This document shows, piece after piece, positions 27,574 through 60,101 of a DNA stretch of 64,000 bases. This DNA comes from an uncultured Alphaproteobacteria bacterium. GTDB taxonomy: Bacteria > Pseudomonadota > Alphaproteobacteria > Rhizobiales > Aestuariivirgaceae. The notes beneath the pieces were generated by a model. The model was not told where the DNA came from and searched no databases. It saw nothing but the letters and a program-made list of their open reading frames with translations. A program made the position numbers and the translations under genes. Each line of letters starts with the position of its first letter. The stretch's first letter is position 1. The stretch covers positions 173,547 to 237,546 of the forward strand of contig CAVZHN010000015.1 in NCBI GenBank assembly GCA_963775095.1. Reading direction: 5' to 3'.

Positions 27574-27615
27574 AATTGGTTTCAAATCCGAGTCATTTCA
27601 ATGCGGAAATGAAGG

Positions 27616-28006
27616 TGCCAGCCGGCCTGTAAGCCGGGTTCTGTTTGGACGGTTTCCCGCCCGCGATGACCATTCATCTGGAACGCCCGTTACCGGACGC
27701 TTCGCGCGACCTACCCGGGCAGCAAGCCGGCTAAAGCCCCGGGCCGAAGCCCATGCCACCCCTATTCGGTCTTGCTCCCGGTGGGGTTTGCCGTGCCGCT
27801 TCCGTTGCCGGCCGCGCGGTGCGCTCTTACCGCACCGTTTCACCCTTGCCGTCGGGATTGCTCCGTCAGGCGGTCTGTTCTCTGTGGCACTTTCCCTGGG
27901 GTCGCCCCCGCCGGACGTTATCCGGCACCGTATAACCGTGGAGCCCGGACTTTCCTCCCCCGCGCCCTTTCGGGACTTGCGGCAGCGGTCATCCGGCCGA
28001 CTGGCA
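27616..28006 (-). ncRNA. rnpB: RNase P RNA (class A)
   Basis: Minus strand has GAGGAAAGTCCGGGCTC near the 5' end and ACAGAACCCGGCTTA near the 3' end; terminal P1 pairing TGCCAGTCGGCCGG / CCGGCTGGCA. Confidence 0.97.
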
Positions 28007-35216: not shown

Positions 35217-36223
35217 TGTTTATCGTGGAAGAGCTACTGGCAGGACTTAAGGCGGCGGCGGAAGCGACACGGGTGCGCATTCTCTTTGTGCTGTCCCACG
35301 GCGAATTCAACGTCAGCGAACTCACCCAGGTTCTCGGGCAAAGCCAGCCGCGGGTATCCCGGCACTTGAAATTGATGACCGAAGCCGGCCTCATTTCGCG
35401 CCACAAGGAAGGAAATTGGGTGCTTTTCAGGCTCCGCGAGGATGCCGCTGGCGGCGCCCTGTCGCGCGCCATCGCCGGCCTGTTGTCGGCCCGCGACGCC
35501 ATATTGGCCCGCGATCTCACCAGGCTTGAGGACATACGCGCCGAACGCGCCCGCGCCGCTGCACAATATTTCGCTGCCAATGCAAGCGATTGGGAGAAGA
35601 TCCGCACCCTGCACGTGAAGGAGGAGGATGTTGAGGCTGCGATGGTGGCCATGGCCGGAAACCGGCCGATTTCCCTCCATATCGACCTCGGAACCGGTAC
35701 CGGCAGCCTTATCCGCACCTTTTCCGGCCTCGCCGCCCAAGCGATCGGAATTGACCAAAGCCGCGACATGCTGGCCGTTGCGCGCGCCAATCTGGAACGG
35801 CTGGGGCTCCGCCAGGCCCAGGTGCGCCACGGCGACATCTATGCCCTGCCCTTCGCGGATTCATCTTGTGATTTCATAACGATCCACCAGGTTCTTCACT
35901 ATCTGGATGATCCCGGCCGCGCCCTCCAGGAAGCTGCCCGCCTGCTGCGGCCGGGGGGCCGCCTGCTGATCGCCGACTTTGCTCCCCACGACCTCGAACA
36001 CCTGCGCGCCAGCCACGCCCATCGCCGCCTGGGTATCTCAGCCGAAAGCATGGCGGGATGGCTGCAGCGGGCGGGTGTTGCCCTCACCCGCCACGATGTC
36101 CTGCCGCCGCCCTGGCGCCAGCCCGAGACGGGCCTTACCGTTTCCTTGTGGCTTGCCGAAAAACCCAGCGTTCCCAATACTTTGTCCAGTCAGGCTGCAC
36201 AACAACATGAACTTGCCCGCTGA
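35216..36223 (+). CDS. sahR: ArsR-family HTH fused to SAM-dependent methyltransferase domain (SahR-like regulator)
   Basis: TRVRILFVL, SQPRVSRHLKLM HTH; IDLGTGTG, HQVLHY..DP methyltransferase motifs; directly upstream of metF. Confidence 0.88.
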   Translation: MFIVEELLAGLKAAAEATRVRILFVLSHGEFNVSELTQVLGQSQPRVSRHLKLMTEAGLISRHKEGNWVLFRLREDAAGGALSRAIAGLLSARDAILARDLTRLEDIRAERARAAAQYFAANASDWEKIRTLHVKEEDVEAAMVAMAGNRPISLHIDLGTGTGSLIRTFSGLAAQAIGIDQSRDMLAVARANLERLGLRQAQVRHGDIYALPFADSSCDFITIHQVLHYLDDPGRALQEAARLLRPGGRLLIADFAPHDLEHLRASHAHRRLGISAESMAGWLQRAGVALTRHDVLPPPWRQPETGLTVSLWLAEKPSVPNTLSSQAAQQHELAR

Positions 36224-37093
36224 CGACCCCGGCGACATCACCGTGTCCTTCGAGTTCTTCCCGCCCAAGGGCGGTGAAGCCGAAGCTGGCTTCTGGCGGA
36301 CGATCGCCAAACTCGAAACCGTGGCGCCGCGCTTCGTGTCGGTGACCTATGGCGCCGGCGGCACCACCAGGGACCGGACCCTCGCCACCGTCGCCCGCCT
36401 CGCCAGCGCACACGACGCTGCGCCCCGCCGCCCATTTGACCTGCGTCGGCGCCAGCAAGGACGAAGTCAACACGGTGATCGGCGACTTCAAGAAAGCCGG
36501 TGTAAAACATATACTTGCGCTCCGCGGTGATCCGCCGGGCGGGGTCGGCACACGGTTCACGCCACACCCCGATGGTTATCGCAACGCCGCCGATCTGGTG
36601 CGCGGCATCCGCGATATCGGCGGTTTCGAGATTTCGGTGAGCGCCTATCCCGAGCGCCACCCCGAATCGGTGTCGATCGAGGAGGATCTCGCCTTCATGG
36701 CCGACAAGGCCGAACACGGCGCCACCCGCGCCATTTCGCAGTTCTTCTTCCACAACGCCTTTTTCCTGCGTTTGCGCGACCGCATCATGGCCCGCGGCAT
36801 CGACATCGACCTGGTGCCCGGCATCCTGCCGATCACCAATTTCGCCCAGCGTCAAGGAGTTTGCGGCGAAGTGCGGCGCCCACGTGCCGCCGTCGCTCGC
36901 CCAGCGCTTCGAGGGCCTCGACGCCGAACCCGAAACCCGCAACCTGGTGGCCGCCATGGTGGCCGCCGAACAGGTGGCGGCCTTGCGCCGCGAAGGCGTC
37001 AAGCACTTCCACTTCTACACCCTGAACCGCGCCGACCTCGTCTACGCCATCTGCCGCGTCCTGGGCCTCGGTTCGAGCGCCAAAGCGGCTTGA
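36207..37093 (+). CDS. metF: 5,10-methylenetetrahydrofolate reductase; extra bases at about 36409 and 36846
   Basis: VSFEFFPPK, SVTYGAGG, AHLTC, LALRGDPP, AYPERHPES, ISQFFF, HFYTLNRA spread over three frames. Confidence 0.95.
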
Positions 37094-37242
37094 GCGGAAC
37101 CATCCGCTCCGCCGTCTCATTGGCAATGAATTGGCATCCGTTTTTCCATGCAATCGGCGCGAAAAACCGATGATTTAGGACGTCAAAACCCATGTTTTCG
37201 TATGACACTTGATGCCAAAACATTGAGGATTCTCCCCATTTT

Positions 37243-37260
37243 CGGTGACAGTGCACGAAA
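37243..37260 (-). repeat. Left inverted repeat CGGTGACAGTGCACGAAA
   Basis: Exact reverse complement of the 18-mer at 37940-37957 and 37966-37983. Confidence 0.9.
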
Positions 37261-37342
37261 CTCTAGTGCAATCTCTGGTTTCCGTCTCTCAAACTGCAAT
37301 CAAGAGATGAGCGCCCGGCAGCGACAATTCAGATGAAGGAGG

Positions 37343-37819
37343 TTATGCCTTGCCCAAATGTTTCGGCCAGAATTCCAGGTGTACTGCGGCGGCCTCTTCC
37401 TCAAGTTCCGGGCTCGGGCCAATCACCGTGACAGTGCGCGCGCCAGTTTGCAGCACCATCCGGCTTGGCACATTCAATCCGATCCCGGCGATCTCGCCGA
37501 GCCGCGCTTCGGAGCACGCAAACACCATGCGCCCGATGCCCGACCAGTAGATCGCTCCGGCGCACATCGCGCACGGCTCCGTGCTGGTGTAAAGCGTACA
37601 GTCAGCGAGAACAGCCGTGTCGTAGCGCTTCGCCGCCAGTTTGACCAGGTTCATCTCGGCGTGGTTCGTCATGTCGTGGCCGGTGAAGACGCTGTTTTCG
37701 GCGCGCAGGATGACCGCGCCGTCCTTCACCAGCACCGAGCCAAACGGCTCGTCGCCGTTGGCCATCGCCGATTTCGACAGCGCAATCGCCTCGCGCAAAA
37801 ACGGCTCGTGGTTATCCAT
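37343..37819 (-). CDS. Nucleoside deaminase (cytidine/dCMP deaminase Zn superfamily; guanine-deaminase-like)
   Basis: PFGSVLV, HAEMN, LYTSTEPCAMCAGAIYW. Confidence 0.93.
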   Translation of the reverse strand: MDNHEPFLREAIALSKSAMANGDEPFGSVLVKDGAVILRAENSVFTGHDMTNHAEMNLVKLAAKRYDTAVLADCTLYTSTEPCAMCAGAIYWSGIGRMVFACSEARLGEIAGIGLNVPSRMVLQTGARTVTVIGPSPELEEEAAAVHLEFWPKHLGKA

Positions 37820-37939
37820 CGAAGCCTCCCAACAACTAAAGCGGAATGATCTTGTCCTGAATTGAAGGAATTTCCAAGTGGCAGCAAATCTGGGCTAGGG
37901 TGACAGCGGGCTGCGGCGACAGCACATACAATTGCGGAA

Positions 37940-38027
37940 TTTCGTGCACTGTCACCGTATTCCTGTTTCGTGCACTGTCACCGCAATCCCGTGCACTGTC
38001 ACCGTAACCATTTCGTGCACTTCACGG
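37940..38027 (+). repeat. Tandem array of TTTCGTGCACTGTCACCG units (2 full, 1 near-full, 1 degenerate)
   Basis: Copies at 37940-37957, 37966-37983, 37990-38004 (15-mer core) and 38011-38027 (degenerate), 21-26 bp period. Confidence 0.9.
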
Positions 38028-38101
38028 CACCAGTCACTAATTGCAAGTTGACAAGACGTGACCATTAGTTGTGCTACTGTCTGGCGTCAGGGGAGGGATC
38101 G

Positions 38102-38245
38102 ATGAACAAGATCACCGTCCGGTTCGCAGCTATCTATCAGCTCCTAGGCGCTATTGGTATTGCCGCAAGTTGCGCTTGTTTCATTGACAACAGCTACAAG
38201 CCTGTCATTGGCTATTGGCGCGACATCCTGCTTCTCTCAACTTGA
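38102..38245 (+). CDS. Possible short hydrophobic protein (47 aa) or frameshifted fragment
   Basis: GGGAGG RBS; MNKITVRFAAIYQLLGAIGIAASCACFID... Confidence 0.3.
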   Translation: MNKITVRFAAIYQLLGAIGIAASCACFIDNSYKPVIGYWRDILLLST

Positions 38246-38961
38246 TCATCGTCACCGCCATATTGAGGCAACTCCGTTGGCGCCTCCTGATCTCGGCACA
38301 GTAAACATGGCCTTTCAGGCACCGGGTGCTGATCTCGAAGCCGCTCATGGCTACTCATATTCGGAGTAGGATGACCTGTTCGTTTCCGCAAAGATTGATC
38401 CAATCATGTCGCATCGAGCAGTGTCAACATCCGCTGTGTCATCAGAGCGATCAGTGCATCGACGCTCGAGGTCACAATCACCATCAGACGGTGCGAAGTG
38501 TCATGCTCCATCATCTGCAATTGCAATTCACATCGTGATTCAACACGCAAAGCGCTTGGCCATGCCACGCTCGGCCAGTGTTCCCAGACGGCACAGCAGG
38601 TTTGACCGTGGATGTCGTCAAGGATTCGATGTGCATGCCGCTGAAATTTGCCACCGCTTCTCAGGAACGAATTTTCCCAGCAAGCCTTACTTAGTGCACG
38701 CCCATGGCCTTGGCGGCAATCGCCACCAGTCTCATCGAGGCGCGACTGGATTTCTTCGGTTAGAGCTGCAAGGCGCTTGGAGTTCTCCTGGAGGGACACG
38801 TGATGTCGGTCTTCATGTTGAGTTCCTCTTGCTTGATATCTGCCAAACTGGCTCTCGCCGTCCGCAACGTCATATCAGGCACTGTTTTCACTGGCCGTCA
38901 GTGAAGCGGATCACACTGTTTGCGGCGAGAACGAGTGCGCGGAAGAGCATTGCAACGCCCC

Positions 38962-39594
38962 CTACCCCATGTCGTTCCGCTTCCACACCGGCGCAATCGC
39001 CGGCCGCGACTGACAACCGGTCGTGCAGCGCCTTGAGGTTGGGGTGCCTGACGGCAAGGGCTGCATATCGGGCGCCCAGTTGATCAGCATGGCGGCGTAG
39101 ATGTCGGCGGCGCTGAAGCTTGTCGCCGATGAGATAGCGGTTTGGCCCGAGAACGTCCGCCAGAATGCCGAACTGCATTCATCATGTCCTGCGCCGGCCT
39201 TGGCCTTGATGCCGTCGACGGCTGCGGCGTCGGTGGTGTAGTGCTGCGGATAGAGAGACGGAGATCGGTATTGTAGAGCGCCGTGGCCATGAACACCATC
39301 CAGCGCAGATAGCTGGGCCGCTGCGGCCGCCTTGAAGCCCGGCGCCAGCCCGCTCTCCGGATGAAGGATCGGCGAGATGAATCAGGATCGCCGCACTCTC
39401 GGTCATCACCTGCGCCATCGGGCAACACCAGCGTCGGCACCTGCTTCATCGGGTTCATGGCCCGCGAAGCTTTCCGGCAGATGGCCCTGCGCGTCGCGGT
39501 CAAGCGTGATCATCTCGCATTCAACGCCGCATTCGGCCAGCAGCGCCTCGACGCAAACGTTTCCCGCACCCGGCCTCGCATAGAGTTTGTACAT
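38962..39594 (-). pseudogene. Glutathione S-transferase broken into about six frames
   Basis: Fragments MYKLYARPG, MNPMKQVPTLVLPDG, MTESAAILIHL, YLRWMVFMA, YLIGD..SAADIYAAMLINW, RPAIAPVWKRNDMG*. Confidence 0.75.
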
Positions 39595-39682
39595 TTCACG
39601 TCTCCCTTCATCACAATGTTACAACCCCGTGCCACGCTTTGAGAAGCCCCTTGCAACATCTGCGCAAAAGTGGAAAGCCACG

Positions 39683-40644
39683 ATGATCGCCGGACTTGCA
39701 TACAGATCGCTGATGCCAAAACGCCGAGACCCTGTTGCACCCGCGGGCAAGACCAAGCCCGTGCGCTTCAGCTATTCGACCGCCGACCAGCCGAAACTGC
39801 AGCAAGTGGTGATCCAGGCGATCGAGAAGATCGGCGGCCAGCGCAAGCTGAAGAAACTCTACGTCCAGCACCAGAAGAGCGTGGCGGCCGGCGAGAATTT
39901 CTTTGCCGCAGCCCTTCGCCTGCTGCGCATCACCGTCGAGTTTGATCAATTGGCCCTTGCCCAGACGCCGGCCACGGGGCCGGTGCTGTTCATTTCCAAT
40001 CACCCCTATGGCGTGCTCGACGGCATCACCTTGACCTGGCTTGCCACCAAGGTGCGCCCCGACACCAAGGTGCTGGCCAACGACGTGTTGTGCCAGGCGC
40101 CCGAGGCCCGCGACAACCTGCTGCCGGTGGCCTTCGCGCCCACCCGCGAAGCCCGCGAAACCAATGTGCGCTCGAGGCTTGAAGCGCAGGAGCTGGCTGC
40201 GCGATGGCCACGCCATCGGCATTTTTCCGGGCGGCGGCGTTTCGACCTCCGAGCGGCCCGATGAAGGGCCCGGCTGTTGACCTGCCATGGGCGCCATTCA
40301 CGGCGAAGCTCCTGCGCATGTCGGGCGCTACTGTTGTTCCCGTTTATTTCGTTGGCCAGAACAGCCGGCTGTTTCAACTGGCCAGCCATTTGAGCCTGAC
40401 GCTGCGGCTCTCACTGGTGTTCCGCGAAACCGCCCGCCGCATCGGCAGCAAACTCAAGGTGCGGGTCGGCGCGCCAATTCCCTTCGCCGACATCGCCCAC
40501 ATCGAAGACCGCGGCGAACTGGTGATGGAACTGCGCAAGCGCACCTTCGACCTGGCGCGGCTCGAAGATGTCAAAGACCACCCCGGCAACCTCCACATGC
40601 GCGAAGCCCGCATCAAGGGCGTGAAGCACAAGGATGATCCGTAG
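39683..40644 (+). CDS. Lysophospholipid acyltransferase family protein; indels at about 40188 and 40258
   Basis: SNHPYGVLDG (HxxxxD), IFPGGGV, VVPVYFVGQNSRLFQ, GAPIP. Confidence 0.88.
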
Positions 40645-45478: not shown

Positions 45479-46622
45479 CTAAGCCAAATGATCCACCCGC
45501 TGCATGTGCTGGGCAAGGCCCTTCACCTGATTGAGCCAACTTTCAAAGATTTTCTTCTCATGCGGCGCACCGTGTACGCCCGGCTTGAAGTCCTTCTTCA
45601 TCACCGACTCAACCGCGAAGCTCACCGGAATTGAGACGAGCCGCCCCATGGCCGTGCCCTTGGCGTCGCCCCAGGCATCCATGGCCCAGGTTTCATCGAA
45701 CACCGGCTTGCCATCCTTCTCGGCCTTGAGCGACACGAACAGGATGACGCGATCCGGCTCGCCCGGCGCGTAGCTGTTGTCCTTCAGGAATTCGGCGGCC
45801 ATTTCGGCAAGGCGCGCGTCGCCCGAGGGGCCAGACAGCGTTTCGATTTCGCGGAACACCGGCTCCCACGCCTTGGCCCAGCCATTCAAGCGGATGGTGC
45901 CGCGCACGAAGTCCTTCACCTTCCAGTCCTTGCCGAAGTTGTAGTCTTCCATGAACGGGATAGCTGTCGCGGTTGGGATAGACCTCAAAACTTTCGGGCA
46001 CCGGCAGCGGCGCATCGTAGGACGTGATGGCGTTCCACGGCCGATCCGCCTTGAATTCCTTGAAATCGCGCAAGGAGCGCGACGGCGAGCGCAGCGCCTT
46101 CAAGACGCCAACCGGCGCCCACGAGAATTTGTAGCGGAAGGGATTGGCAACCTTCGGCACGCCACCGCAATAGGAGGTGAAGCTCACGACATTGCCGGCG
46201 TCATAGGCCTTCGACGCCTTGTAGCGGCTGACGAGATCATGGGCCATCAGATGGTCGATGCCGGGATCGAGGCCAACTTCATTGACCGAGACGAGGCCCT
46301 TGGACCTGAACTCCGCGTCCAGCGCCTTCATCTCCGGCGCGATGTAGGACGATGACACGAAGTTGGCGCCCCTGGTGAGGCAGGCTTTGGCGATCGCCAC
46401 GTGCTGATCGGCGGGGAGCATGGAAATGGCGATATCGCCCGGCTGCAATGCCGCGGTGAGCGCCTCAAGCGAATAGGCGCGGATGTCTTTCGCCACATCG
46501 CCCACGGCTTTCCTGGCGTTGTCGACGGTGCGGTTCCACACCACCACCTTGTGGCCATTCTCTATGAGCCGCCTCAGCCCCGGGCCCGAGGAAAGGCCGG
46601 TGCCGCACCAATGAATTGTCAT
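45479..46622 (-). CDS. Saccharopine dehydrogenase, NADP-binding (Lys9/SDH-like); extra base at about 45958
   Basis: NEVGLDPGIDH, SYCGGVP, YKFSWAP.GVL, YPNRDS, RGTIRL.GW. Confidence 0.9.
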
Positions 46623-48701: not shown

Positions 48702-49063
48702 ATGACACAGGAACAAGAACGCGTCGAGACGGCCTCAATGCAAGCTTCTCCAACATACCACCGTTGGCTCCGCCAACATCTTCGCCGACATCGGCCTTCC
48801 CAATGCCGAGGAGCATCTGATCAAGGCGCAGCTGGTGGTGAAGATCGACACTCTGATGAAAGCCCGCAAACTCAAGCAGTGCTGACGCCGCCAAGCTGTT
48901 TGGCGTCAAGCAACCCGACATCTCTAAGATGCTGCACGGCGATTTCCGCCAATTCTCCGTCGAACGCCTGATGCGGTTTCTGGTGGCGCTTGGGCAGGAT
49001 GTGGAGATTGTGGTGAAGCCACAGAAGGTGAAGGGAGAGGCGGCGGCGCTAAGGGTAGCGTGA
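48702..49063 (+). CDS. XRE/HigA-like HTH antitoxin; indels at about 48755 and 48880
   Basis: GSANIFADIGLPNAEEHLIKAQL...AAKLFGVKQPDISKML.G.FRQFSVERLMRFLVALGQDVEIVV. Confidence 0.85.
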
Positions 49064-49178
49064 TGAATTATGAGACACACAAGGCAACATTGCCGATGAA
49101 GAGTTCCCCAGCATGCCCCATGCGGTTCAGGTGCGGCAAGCGGAATTTATTCGCGCTAAATTACCGAAGGGTTAACTC

Positions 49179-49930
49179 ATGACTAAAGGCAGTATCCACG
49201 AAAAACTTCCCAGACGTCGTAAAGGATCTTGCCCAAGCACTATCAGAACAGCAACGAAGTGGCAAACCGTATGTGGTTTCTCTGTTTTGGCATCACTATC
49301 CTTGTGATCGCAAATCTCAATCCAGCTAGAAATAGCAACTCGATTGACTTTCTGGGTGTAACACTGACACAAGAGATTCATCTGGCAGCAGCAATAGCAC
49401 TGTTGCTCGAACTTCGCCATTCTATGGCTAGCGAAGGCTCGAATCACAACGTTTAAATTGGGACGACATATCGCGAACTTGTTGATCCGCAAGGTACTCA
49501 ACGAGTCTGAACACATACTAGCCAATTCTACTTCAATGAAAGCTGCTGCGTTCTATCTGCTAAAGTCAAACTACAGCCGAATTCACCCAATATTCCACCA
49601 CATCGATCCGGACGGAAGTCAAAGCCGCTACACGCTAATTAGAGGCTCATAGACATTGCATACTCTGCTGTTCCATCGGGTAGCGAATAATACTCTCAGT
49701 GCATAATGGTTAACTGGCTTATCTAAACAGCGCCAATGGCGGTCCAGTGAATGGGTGACTGTGGTGTTACTAGGCAATTACAGGACTGTTTTCCGCTTTT
49801 CAACGTGCGTCCTCTGTTACTACGCATTAGTACGGACTCGATCTTCCGGAAACTTGAAGGCCTATCACACGAGTTTGACAATGACTTCCTGTTACTTGCG
49901 AATTGCTGGCACTTGGGCATTTCGCTTCCC
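49179..49930 (+). pseudogene. AT-richer foreign segment with a broken putative membrane-protein gene
   Basis: Visible drop in GC; short hydrophobic ORF pieces (49229-49456, 49458-49652) that appear to continue across frames. Confidence 0.4.
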
Positions 49931-51588
49931 TCACCGCGCAAACTGCTTGTACTTGATCCGCTTCGGCATCACGCTGTCTTCGCCCAGCCTGCGCTTCTTG
50001 TCTTCCTCGTAGTCCTGGAAATTCCCTTCAAACCATTCGACGTGGCTGTCGCCTTCGAAGGCCAGAATGTGCGTCGCCAATCGGTCCAGGAACATGCGGT
50101 CGTGGCTGATGATGACGGCGCAGCCGGCGAAATCTTCGAACGCCTCTTCGAGCGCCGCCAGGGTTTCGGTGTCGAGGTCGTTGGTCGGTTCGTCTAACAG
50201 CAAGACATTGGCACCGCTCTTCAGCATCTTGGCCAAGTGCACGCGATTGCGCTGGCCGCCCGACAGCGTGCCGACCTTCTGCTGCTGGTCGCCGCCCTTG
50301 AAATTGAAGGCGCCGGTATAGGCGCGGGAGTTCATCTCGCGCTTGCCGAGATAGAGCACGTCGTTGCCGCCGGAAATCTCCTGCCACACCGTCTTGTCGG
50401 GATCGAGCGAGTCGCGGCTTTGGTCGACGTAGCCCATCTGCACGCTCTCGCCGAACGAGATGGTGCCCGCGTCGGGAAGCTCCACACCCGTCAGCATACG
50501 GAACAATGTGGTTTTGCCCGCGCCATTGGGCCCGATGATGCCGACGATACCGCCGGGCGGCAGCTTGAAACTGAGATCGTCGATCAGCAGCCGGTCGCCA
50601 TAGGCCTTGCTCAGGCCCTCGACGGTGATGACATTGTCGCCCAAGCGCTCGCCCGGCGGAATGATGATCTGCGCCGTCGTTGACTTGAGGCGCTCGTCAT
50701 TGGCCTTGATCAGTTCGTCATAGGCCTTGAAGCGCGCCTTGGACTTGGCCTGCCGCGCCTTGGGCGATGAAGCGATCCACTCGCTCTCGCGCTCGATGAC
50801 TTTCTGCCGTGCTGCGTCCTCGCGCGATTCCTGGGAAAAACGCTTGGCCTTGGCCTTGAGATAGGCGGAATAATTGCCCTCGTAGGGAATGCCGCGGCCA
50901 CGGTCGAGTTCCAGAATCCAGCCCGTCACATTGTCGAGGAAGTAGCGGTCGTGGGTAACGATGAGAATCGAACCCGGATAATCGCGCAAGTGATGTTCAA
51001 GCCAGTTCACCGATTTCGGCGTCCGAGATGGTTGGTCGGCTCGTCGAGCAGCAGGAGATCGGGTTTGCGCAGCAGAAGCTGGGTGAGCGCTACCCGGCGC
51101 TTTTCGCCGCCCGACAGATTGTCGATTGACGCATCCCCCGGCGGGCAGCGCATGGCGTCCATCGCCTGCTCCACCTGGGCCTCGAGGTCCCACAGGTTCT
51201 GGGCGTCGATCACGTCCTGGAGCTTCGCCGCCTTGTCGGCGTTCTCCTCATTGTAGTCCATCATCAGCGCGTTGTAGTCGTCGAGGATCGCCTTCTTGGC
51301 GGCGACCCCTTCCATGACGTTGCCCATGACATCGAGTGCGGGATCAAGCTCCGGCTCCTGCTGCAGGTAGCCGCAGGTCGCACCTTCGGCGAGCCACGCC
51401 TCGCCGTTCCATTCCGTGTCGAGCCCCGCCATGATGCGCAGCAACGTCGACTTGCCCGAGCCGTTGGGGCCCAACACACCGATCTTGGCGTCCGGGTAGA
51501 ACGACAGGTGGATATTCTCAAGAACCTTTTTGCCACCGGCATAGGCCTTGGTGAGGCCTTGCATGTGATAGATGAACTGGCGCGCCAT
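49931..51588 (-). CDS. ettA: Energy-dependent translational throttle ABC-F protein; extra bases at about 51015 and 51024
   Basis: MARQFIYHM, two ABC domains (GPNGSGKS / LSGGEKRR; GPNGAGKT / LSGGQRNR), HLDAES restored by removing two bases, [16 protein letters not shown]. Confidence 0.96.
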
Positions 51589-57986: not shown

Positions 57987-60101
57987 CTATTCCTGATGGT
58001 CCAGGGCTTCCTTGATGATCTTGTGCAGATCTTCCCGGCGGTAGGGTTTCATGATGATGAACCCCTCGCGGAACCGCGGCTCTTCCTGGTGCACCATGGC
58101 GCCCTTGGGATAGCCGGAAGTGTGGACGATCTTCAGCCCCGGCCGCATCGAGCGCGCCGCCTGCGCCAGGTCGAAACCATTCATGCCGCCTGGCATGACA
58201 ACGTCCGAGAACATGAGATCGACATCGGGGTTTTCCTGCAGCCTGGCCAGCGCCTGCAGGCCGTCCTCCGCCTCGATCACTTCATAGCCGAAATCCGTGA
58301 GGAAGCCGCAGGCCACGGCCCGCACCGCTTCCTGGTCCTCGACCACCAAGAGCTTGGGCGCCGTCTTCACCGGCAAGGTGAGCGGCGGAGCTTCTTCGAT
58401 GACGGCGGGTTCTGGCGGTAGCGCCGCAACCTCTTCCACCGTCGGCTCAGCTACCGCCGGCATCTCCTCGCCGGCCGCAAACTGGCGCGGCAGATACATC
58501 TTGATGGCCGTGCCGTGGCCGACTTCCGAATAGACGCTGATATGGCCGCCCGACTGCTTGATGAAACCATAGACCATGGCAAGCCCGAGCCCCGAGCCCT
58601 TGCCCGTTTCCTTGGTGGTGAAGAACGGCTGAAAGACTTTCTCCAGCACTTCGGGAGGAATGCCGGTGCCAGTGTCCGAAACCGCCACCATGACATAATG
58701 GCCGGGTTCAACTTCGGGATGCCGCTCGGCATAGGCCTGGTCAAGATAAACAGGCTGCGTCTCGATGGTGAGATGCCCGCCTCTCGGCATGGCGTCACGG
58801 GCATTGATGCACAGATTGAGCACCGCCGACTCGAGCTGCGAAGCGTCGATGATGGCCTTGGGCTCGCCCGCCATGGCATCGACCTTGAGTTCGATGGTTT
58901 CGCCGATGGTGCGCGACAGAAGCGGCGATAGGCCCTTGACCAGATCGTTGATCCGAACCTCGCTGGGCTCCAGCGCCTGCTTGCGGGCGAACGCCAGCAT
59001 TTGCCGCGTCAGGTCGGAGCCCTTGCGCGCCGCATCGATCGCTTCGCCGAGGCGGCGCATGCCGCGCTCGTCGCCATCGATTTTTCCTTCCAGCAGCTGC
59101 AGATTGCCGATCACCACGGTCAGAAGATTGTTGAAATCATGCGCCAGGCCGCCGGTCAGTTGGCCGATGGCTTCCATCTTCTGGGCCTGTTGCAAATTGC
59201 GCTGCGACTGCAGTTTCTCGGTATTGTCAAGGACCTGAACGGTCAATTGCTCGATCTCGCCGTGCTCGTTGCGCACCAGCGCGACCGTTGTCGAACAGCT
59301 GATGGGCTTGCCGTCGGGCAACACAAACCGCAGGTCCTGATAGAAGTTCACCAGCGAGCCCTGAATGAGTTCGCCCACTCCCTTGAGGAAAGCCTGCCGG
59401 TCTTCCCGGTACAGGAGTTCGTCGAACGCCTGAAGGCCGGCTTCCGGCCTGCGCCTTAGCATGGTCCAGAACGCCTGGTTGGCCACCGCGATTTCGCCGG
59501 TGGGGGCGACCAGCGCCATGCCATGCGCCGCTTCCTCGAAGGCGCTCTTGAACCGCCGGTCATCGACCACCGTAACCGCCTGCTCGACCTTGATCGATAC
59601 CGGTTCGGTCAGCACGCAGACCGAGCGCTCGATGCGGCCCTTGTCGCCGCGATAGGCATTCATCGACAGGAGGATTTGCGCCGGCGCTCCATCCTTGCGC
59701 ATGATGGTGAAAACTTCGTCGCGGCATTGGCCGCTCTGCAGATAGGCCGGCATCACCTTCTGCACCAGCCGCGCCCGCAATTCCGGTGCCAGAAGTTCCG
59801 TGAACATGCGGCCTTCGACGTCCGAAAGCTGATACCCCAGCGCCCGCGACCACTGGCTGTTGACCGATGTGATGCGGCCCGACCCATCCATGGCATGCAT
59901 CAGCACCGGCATGTTGTGCAGCAATTGCTCGTAGACCTTGCCGTTCTGATCCGGGAAGAACGGAAGATAGGCCGCGTGCGTCACCGCCGGTCTTTCGATC
60001 TTCCACGTTGGGGCAGACTGGCGCAACTCATCCCAACCCTGGAATGGTTCGGCAAGATTGCTGGTCTTCATCGGCGATGTCATAAAATTGGCCTTTGGCA
60101 A
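57987..60101 (-). CDS. Cytoplasmic PAS-PAS hybrid histidine kinase with C-terminal receiver
   Basis: Two PAS/PAC domains, AHDFNNLL H-box, NLCINARDAM, DTGTG, GSGLGL, receiver VVEDQ...SDVVMPG; start may be 60083 or 60071. Confidence 0.94.
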   Translation of the reverse strand: MPKANFMTSPMKTSNLAEPFQGWDELRQSAPTWKIERPAVTHAAYLPFFPDQNGKVYEQLLHNMPVLMHAMDGSGRITSVNSQWSRALGYQLSDVEGRMFTELLAPELRARLVQKVMPAYLQSGQCRDEVFTIMRKDGAPAQILLSMNAYRGDKGRIERSVCVLTEPVSIKVEQAVTVVDDRRFKSAFEEAAHGMALVAPTGEIAVANQAFWTMLRRRPEAGLQAFDELLYREDRQAFLKGVGELIQGSLVNFYQDLRFVLPDGKPISCSTTVALVRNEHGEIEQLTVQVLDNTEKLQSQRNLQQAQKMEAIGQLTGGLAHDFNNLLTVVIGNLQLLEGKIDGDERGMRRLGEAIDAARKGSDLTRQMLAFARKQALEPSEVRINDLVKGLSPLLSRTIGETIELKVDAMAGEPKAIIDASQLESAVLNLCINARDAMPRGGHLTIETQPVYLDQAYAERHPEVEPGHYVMVAVSDTGTGIPPEVLEKVFQPFFTTKETGKGSGLGLAMVYGFIKQSGGHISVYSEVGHGTAIKMYLPRQFAAGEEMPAVAEPTVEEVAALPPEPAVIEEAPPLTLPVKTAPKLLVVEDQEAVRAVACGFLTDFGYEVIEAEDGLQALARLQENPDVDLMFSDVVMPGGMNGFDLAQAARSMRPGLKIVHTSGYPKGAMVHQEEPRFREGFIIMKPYRREDLHKIIKEALDHQE

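Follow-up and report, generated by a model that had tools for sequence, protein, structure and literature searches.

An 18-bp repeat on either side of a deaminase gene in an uncultured member of the Hyphomicrobiales and its likeness to the terminal inverted repeats of Y1 transposase genes

Repeats and genes between metF and GST

The DNA analyzed here, hereafter the window, is a 64-kb stretch from an uncultured member of the Hyphomicrobiales, to which Aestuariivirga MAGs show about 72–73% identity. A bacterial class A RNase P RNA is encoded at 27614–28004 on the minus strand (285.7 bits) and speaks for a chromosomal origin. GC content is 0.48 at 49001–50000, against about 0.61 elsewhere in the window. 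The convergent genes metF and GST enclose a lineage-specific variable segment (37096–38952, not assigned to a strand) that holds the repeats under study, a deaminase gene and about 0.9 kb of other DNA. Its limits were set by comparison with one related locus, L047 (ArsR-MTase 82% identical at the amino acid level), as L046 stops within metF and L130 begins within GST. Synteny between L047 and the window stops at 37095 and restarts at 38953, the gene order in L047 being MlaC-ArsR/MTase-metF-(PfkB, GPI/cupin)-GST-acyltransferase; no remnants of PfkB or of the cupin gene were detected in the window. Gene ends, and not the repeats, thus delimit the variable segment. Its distal part (38028–38952, about 0.9 kb, GC about 54%) has no counterpart in L047. 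The ORFs of this part gave no Pfam match and none of them is convincing, and a plasmid search with 38020–38960 gave no match.

When the window was scanned for the 18-mer TTTCGTGCACTGTCACCG, exact copies were located on the plus strand at 37940–37957 and 37966–37983, and an inverted exact copy on the minus strand at 37243–37260. A copy with two mismatches occupies 37987–38004 (plus strand), and a fourth array copy at 38010–38027 is truncated and mutated (TTTCGTGCACT-TCACGG). The chance expectation for the window is 0.07 matches, and five matches were reached in none of 100 shuffles. Tandem Repeats Finder reports the array as 37940–38025, with a period of 26 and 3.7 copies. In the extended consensus the 18-mer is part of a unit of about 25 bp, GAG-18mer-TAAT, to which we refer as an arm. 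A position weight matrix (PWM) for arms, built solely from other genomes and expected to give 0.3 hits above 6 bits per window, places right-type arms on the plus strand at 37937–37961 (R1, 41.8 bits), 37963–37987 (R2, 35.8 bits) and 37984–38008 (R3, 27.6 bits). Together with the truncated R4 (38010–38027, plus strand) they form an array spanning 37937–38027, with start-to-start spacings of 26, 21 and 24 nt. Substitutions distinguish the array units, as do their spacers (TATTCCTG, CAA and TAACCA), and hence they are not identical stutter units.

The inverted copy belongs to a solitary left-type arm (37239–37263, minus strand; 38.1 bits), the core of which, at 37243–37260, reads CGGTGACAGTGCACGAAA on the plus strand and is an exact match. 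Its inner flank, CACGAAACTCT, is of the type found in dispersed doublets, and it does not have the ATTGAC leader of the full transposase units described below. A vestigial right arm beside it (AGTGCAATCTCTGG, 9 of 15 consensus matches) was considered too weak to be claimed. A second, degenerate left-type arm was found by the PWM at 37910–37934 (minus strand), 3 nt from R1; it scores 9.8 bits, the null maximum in 30 shuffles being 9.5. The array is therefore not partnerless, and from their sequence this arm and R1 read as the inverted partners of a decayed doublet. The remnant GGTGACAG (37897–37906, minus strand) is a weak candidate for a further left-type arm, identified by sequence reading and the inverted-repeat pairs I5/I13. 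It adjoins the end of the deaminase leader and scores below the PWM threshold; in an X9 contig, from a deaminase relative at about 88% identity, the sequence beyond 37890 has CACGGTGACAGCAATGG at this junction.

The solitary arm and the array face outward around the deaminase gene, with an inner distance of 689 bp. Their inner flanks (left arm versus R1) stop being complementary after about 21 nt, and upon folding, none of the window's arm copies gave a significant hairpin (z = 0.1 to −1.1). Within the 64 kb, arms are confined to the deaminase locus; an arm-like site at 58660–58684 (minus strand, 9.5 bits), located inside a 704-aa ORF, was treated as a chance match.

The deaminase module (37313–37890, minus strand) comprises a coding sequence at 37343–37819 and a conserved leader of about 70 nt (37820–37890). 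The coding sequence is 158 aa long, and no other intact gene is found between the array and the inverted copy. The deaminase matches PF00383 (E = 5.9e-25), has a CDA fold and is guanine-deaminase-like, the nearest solved structure being the Bacillus subtilis guanine deaminase (E = 4e-24). The closest homologues (88–92% amino acid identity) are from Rhizobium spp. and metagenome contigs; an exact-protein look-up returned no record, and the leader has no Rfam match. At the DNA level the module is roughly 88% identical to Rhizobium; 84–88% identity to five other loci (L043, L044, L045, L128 and L129) is limited to about 37313–37890 (about 550–580 bp), while the adjacent metF region is only 65–68% identical to Rhizobium/Sinorhizobium. 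This difference between module and flank indicates that the deaminase was acquired horizontally. Six unrelated neighbourhoods, one of them on the R. leguminosarum chromosome, contain the module, and its identity pattern points to a recent horizontal spread. Around the module in the five other neighbourhoods, arms were found in none. The linkage of arm and deaminase is kept in relatives with 88–97% identity; the arrangement is thus old and stable.

No Y1 transposase gene or remnant was detected in the 64-kb window with 18 members of the transposase clade described below as tblastn queries (best E = 0.08). At the locus, Rfam gave no match at the gathering or E-value threshold, and a promoter/terminator scan gave no signal above chance. 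Neither the array nor the motif matched a plasmid or viral sequence, the scan of viral contigs for the 18-mer giving no hit; the sole match of a literature search with the sequence string was an unrelated human primer. The original prediction had described an 18-bp inverted repeat around a deaminase gene, an about fourfold array, a single gene between the repeats and no transposase in the window. All of these descriptions agree with the data: the copies at 37243–37260 (minus strand) and at 37940 and 37966 (plus strand) are exact, the array at 37940–38027 consists of two exact, one doubly mismatched and one truncated copy, the gene at 37343–37819 is a PF00383 deaminase, and the tblastn search was negative.

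The repeat family and its Y1 transposase partner

The exact 18-mer was searched in one genome per species and found in 42 loci. About 30 of these loci are from Bradyrhizobium, Afipia and other Xanthobacteraceae/Hyphomicrobiales; by our own estimate, from the length of the 18-mer and the size of the collection, about 17 hits over all taxa are expected by chance. In most species representatives the exact 18-mer is present once or twice. Arm copies are extragenic and lie in unrelated intergenic sites. Convergent pairs are frequent, in the order CGGTGACAGTGCACGAAA, then 12 or about 40–65 nt, then TTTCGTGCACTGTCACCG. These doublets are 48–100 bp long, and their variable interiors define several subfamilies. 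Two typical doublets fold stably (L018, z = −11.0; L006, z = −5.6). By reading, the only palindrome of the arm itself is its GTGCAC core and no GTAG is present; hairpins need two arms. No consistent target-site duplication was seen when the arm flanks, which are not direct repeats, were inspected by eye.

Among 149 arms in 115 loci, 20% are in convergent doublets, 19% in same-strand arrays with a spacing of 26–50 nt, and 63% lack a partner in the vicinity. Several arrays stand beside a Y1 gene: three arms each in L054, L065 and L068, four upstream and two downstream in L059, two and two in L072 and L073, and others. Where the arms of a pair lie far apart in other genomes, the DNA between them is mostly non-coding, and arm-bounded cargo was not found among 122 related loci.

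At the outer end of the arms, tandem micro-duplications that include a few flanking bases were observed (CCGTAATT twice or CTGTCACCATAACTCCT twice, for example), with CGTAATnn units. They occur in L012, L013, L019, L035, L037, L042, L054, L055, L065, L072 and L075, and may be the footprint of transposase cut-and-join or of hairpin-induced slippage. Doublets are also found at orthologous sites. One set lies near tenA, with the motif upstream of the gene (L005, L006, L014, L026, L031, L035 and L036), and a second set lies beside an unknown protein (L007, L018, L020, L021, L033, L034 and L039). At both sites near-exact arms are kept in seven species each, and this retention suggests that the arms are under constraint or else decay very slowly.

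A Pfam scan of 92 neighbouring ORFs identified a Y1_Tnp domain in two, at L016 and L022. At L022 an exact arm lies 3 nt past the Y1 stop codon. Flanking arms were then compared among 80 relatives of the L022 protein from metagenomes. Of the 34 loci with at least 46% identity, about 20 have a minus arm whose end is exactly 40 bp upstream of the ATG, and in about 20 of these 34 a plus arm lies 8–74 bp downstream of the gene; none of the 10 homologues with 43% identity or less has an arm. In the full units the upstream arm adjoins a sequence resembling ATTGAC(−35)...TAGATT(−10), and the inner distance from arm to arm is about 700–730 bp. At L059 and L065 the ORF enters the arm and ends ...S-A-L-S-P-stop on AGTGCACTGTCACCGTAA. 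The original prediction had linked such an ending with HUH/Y1 REP-associated-type transposases; the Y1 relatives bracketed by the motif and these two ORFs are in line with it. It had also proposed looking for copies that flank Y1 genes or other cargo, and only the former were found (cargo in 0 of the 122 loci).

The proteins of this Y1 clade are about 215 aa long, with a C-terminal extension of about 75 aa. They share the motif PGLPHHVTQRGNG, and both the HUH motif (MPNH[IV]H) and the tyrosine motif (YRYVxLNPVRA) are intact. Two members score 64.8 and 77.5 bits (E = 1e-18 to 1e-22) against NF047646, the NCBIfam equivalog model for RAYT, the cutoff of which is 80 bits. No solved structure matches the clade by sequence. 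With bbt5382 of Bradyrhizobium BTAi1 the clade shares 70% identity (E = 2e-107). In Di Nocera et al. [quoted passage not shown]

The two Y1 genes recovered by the Pfam scan have peculiarities of their own. At L022 (5044–5694) the catalytic tyrosine is replaced by histidine (FRHILLAPVRAGLV versus YRYVxLNPVRA) and there is no upstream arm; this is probably an inactivated copy or a contig error. The gene at L016 (1650–2310), from an Afipia MAG, is a classic RAYT (203 bits) with inverted GTAG REPs (GTAGGATGGGTT...AACCCATC), and the arm-like sequence TTACGGTGACAGAGCTC directly adjoins one of these REPs, which means that two Y1-repeat systems coexist and touch there. The L016 RAYT was rejected as partner of the arms, since the repeats on both its sides are GTAG REPs of its own, one of which the arm-like copy does no more than adjoin.

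Origin of the arrangement around the deaminase gene

Taking these data together, we are highly confident that the repeats are arms of the TIRYT type, i.e., terminal inverted repeats. The gene family and the TIRtron architecture are already known, having been described in 2013. The 18-mer TTTCGTGCACTGTCACCG would be the conserved core of an arm of about 25 bp (...GAG-TTTCGTGCACTGTCACCG-TAAT) recognised by a RAYT-like HUH/Y1 clade of the Hyphomicrobiales. By analogy with REPIN/RAYT and IS200/IS605, doublets would be non-autonomous elements that the Y1 enzyme spreads in trans, presumably via single-strand cut-and-join; by analogy with IS608, the outer TTAC/GTAA may be a cleavage or target site. 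Tandem arms and CGTAATnn micro-duplications could result from repeated action, or from hairpin-induced slippage, at the outer end.

As for the copies in the window, we favour, as a fairly probable reading, that they are decayed, transposase-less remnants in a variable segment that also received the deaminase gene. The remnants would be a solitary arm and a cluster of one or two degenerate left arms, three full right arms and one truncated right arm, the array having arisen by the local arm reiteration typical of the family. The deaminase would have arrived horizontally, as a gene-plus-leader module, between the two arm sites. It is probably not cargo, and most likely came to be bracketed only because arms accumulated in a variable spot. 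If so, the window is clarified: decayed repeats in a cluster account for what looked like an iteron array, and the deaminase gene was transferred independently. Three points are awkward for this reading. Outward arms and an inner distance of 689 bp, close to that of full units, are unexpected if the two sites are unrelated; as arms occur only at the deaminase locus in 64 kb, a local hot spot has to be assumed for arms to have arrived twice independently within 700 bp; and the arm-deaminase arrangement is old and stable, which obscures how it arose. Because of the orientation and distance of the arms, readings in which the sites are the two ends of one element keep a low probability; the comparative evidence supports neither of those considered next.

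According to the first of them, proposed in the original prediction, the deaminase lies within a non-autonomous element that runs from the left arm to the right arm or arms and is mobilised in trans by a Y1 enzyme; in a variant, the gene may have inserted into the loop of a doublet. Single-strand transposition of the IS200/IS605 type can in principle carry any DNA located between the ends. The outward orientation of the arms is correct, 689 bp resembles the full units, the entire 37096–38952 segment is lineage-specific, and the arm-gene linkage is retained in several relatives. However, the module is armless in its five other contexts, arm-bounded cargo was seen in 0 of 122 related loci, and R1 has a nearer partner (37910–37934) than the solitary arm, with which its inner flank is complementary for only about 21 nt; the window copies, moreover, do not form significant hairpins. 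The replaced segment itself is not arm-bounded. At the metF-downstream locus of L047, where the original prediction had proposed looking for an empty site, the boundaries are 37096 and 38952, not the arms, and PfkB and cupin genes are found instead. We therefore regard a deaminase cassette mobilised in this way as unlikely, and the claim that the gene is mobile cargo is not supported, given the five armless contexts, the boundaries and the missing cargo elsewhere. It is likewise unlikely that the locus is a TIRtron-shaped unit with the deaminase in the place of Y1, that is, a cargo-carrying, non-autonomous REPIN-like element mobile in trans; if true, it would be the first such system with a passenger gene. 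Should arms be shown to carry passenger genes, REPIN/RAYT biology would reach beyond hairpins, selfish or domesticated, and include the mobilisation of genes.

The second reading starts from a full Y1 unit in which illegitimate recombination swapped the transposase for the deaminase module and left the ends in place. The arm-to-arm distance of 689 bp (about 700–730 bp in full units) fits, and so does the layout with a single arm at one end and a tandem array at the other, for which L054, L059, L065 and L068 are parallels. Against it, no leftover Y1 coding sequence was detected by tblastn in the window (best E = 0.08), the ATTGAC...TAGATT leader seen 40 bp inside the arms of full units is absent, and the flank of the solitary arm (CACGAAACTCT) is of the doublet type. 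Such a replacement is in our opinion quite improbable.

A functional protein-binding array, i.e., iterons or an operator acting in replication, in partition, or in the regulation of the deaminase or of a divergent small ORF, is very unlikely. It is true that three to four direct repeats, spaced by about two helical turns, lie upstream of the deaminase, and arms are probably bound by protein, to judge from the arm that abuts the Y1 promoter-like sequence in full units. Yet RNase P RNA and metF mark the surroundings as chromosomal, rep and par genes are absent, the deaminase retains its own leader, armless, in five other contexts, and the family is scattered over unrelated intergenic sites. The term "iteron-like" used in the original prediction describes only the shape of the array, tandem arms being a trait of the repeat family.

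The accuracy of the assembly was also considered. Several genes of the window are split by frameshifts: metF (36205–37093), GST (38965–39594), an acyltransferase gene (39587–40644) and the region 45479–46622. Contigs of related ENA samples (L043, L044, L047 and L130) show the same split-gene pattern. In metF, a short-read relative is without one base at 36848 and one at 36902, so that the splits are probably indels of the long-read assembly and not pseudogenes. The stretch that the original prediction called decayed thus owes this appearance at least partly to assembly indels (metF 36848 and 36902). The repeats themselves are present in short-read data. Contigs from X1 and X2 carry the left arm at 100% identity, X4 has the order metF, arm, deaminase and also covers the first right arm and its flank, and the arm-to-deaminase link is found in X6 (97%) and X10 (93%). 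Arm-spacer-arm pairs from other contexts are present in short-read contigs of four metagenomes (X5, X7, X13 and X14). As tandem arms are common in the family and pairs are found in these four metagenomes, the window array is typical and unlikely to be an assembly artefact; its copy number rests on the assembly, no short-read contig from the same locus having been found that spans the whole array. That the array is a stutter of the long-read assembly, for which the indel-type errors in the window and the missing spanning contig could speak, is highly improbable in view of the substitutions and spacers that vary between units, the first arm and flank in X4, the arm pairs of other contexts in X5, X7, X13 and X14, and the arm arrays beside Y1 genes in JGI metagenome contigs.

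Comparison with known systems

To our knowledge, RAYT-like and TIRYT systems have received little study outside the Gammaproteobacteria. The arm family offers a clean account of one alphaproteobacterial clade, with an arm of about 25 bp, a 40-bp spacing to the start codon and promoter-like sequence. The spacing and reiteration of arms, the CGTAATnn micro-duplications and the doublets conserved in Bradyrhizobium are testable hints on how the enzyme binds and cuts.

The array resembles plasmid iterons in its direct repeats of about 18–22 bp, spacing of about 21–26 bp, AT-richer neighbour and distant inverted copy. Plasmid iterons were rejected, as there is no rep gene, the location is chromosomal, and the motif is dispersed and brackets a transposase gene. 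The doublets, short and non-coding, with TIRs and several subfamilies with different interiors, are reminiscent of MITEs derived from DDE insertion sequences; this assignment was likewise discarded, given that no consistent target-site duplication was seen and that the partner gene is Y1 and not DDE.

With IS200/IS605 elements (IS608, PATEs) the system shares an HUH/Y1 enzyme and TTAC/GTAA at the outer side of the arms, TTAC being both the target and the left cleavage site of IS608. IS200/IS605 ends differ in that they are subterminal hairpins without long TIRs, and the arm system has neither multiple identical gene copies nor TnpB.

The likeness to REPIN-RAYT systems (Bertels & Rainey 2011, PMC3116915; Bertels et al. 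2017, PMC5581495; Nunvar 2010; Ton-Hoang 2012) lies in the dispersed extragenic inverted-repeat doublets with long hairpins, in the one HUH/Y1 gene that these repeats flank, and in some copies being found at orthologous sites across species. Unlike a REP, the arm is not palindromic and has no 5′ GTAG tag, the Y1 clade scores 65–78 bits, below the 80-bit cutoff of NF047646, and carries the C-terminal extension of about 75 aa. Copy number appears low for the arm family, against tens to hundreds of copies per genome for REPIN-RAYT. A strict REPIN-RAYT assignment was rejected, since the GTAG-tagged palindrome is missing and the bit scores are too low, although doublets do fold into stable hairpins.

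The closest likeness is to TIRtrons. The window locus itself is not a complete unit, since a PF00383 deaminase and not Y1 lies between the arms, and its host is an uncultured member of the Hyphomicrobiales whereas that of bbt5382 is a Bradyrhizobium. With TIRtrons as described (PMC3733652), the system has in common a Y1 gene flanked by inverted arms at a fixed arm-gene distance, arms that are long TIRs and not themselves GTAG hairpins, and further copies present as singles, dimers and clusters; the clade groups with bbt5382, ccr1445 and mlo6832. Compared with the TIR motif given there, GGGGWSAS, the arm sequence GGTGACAG matches at seven of eight positions, with T at position 3.
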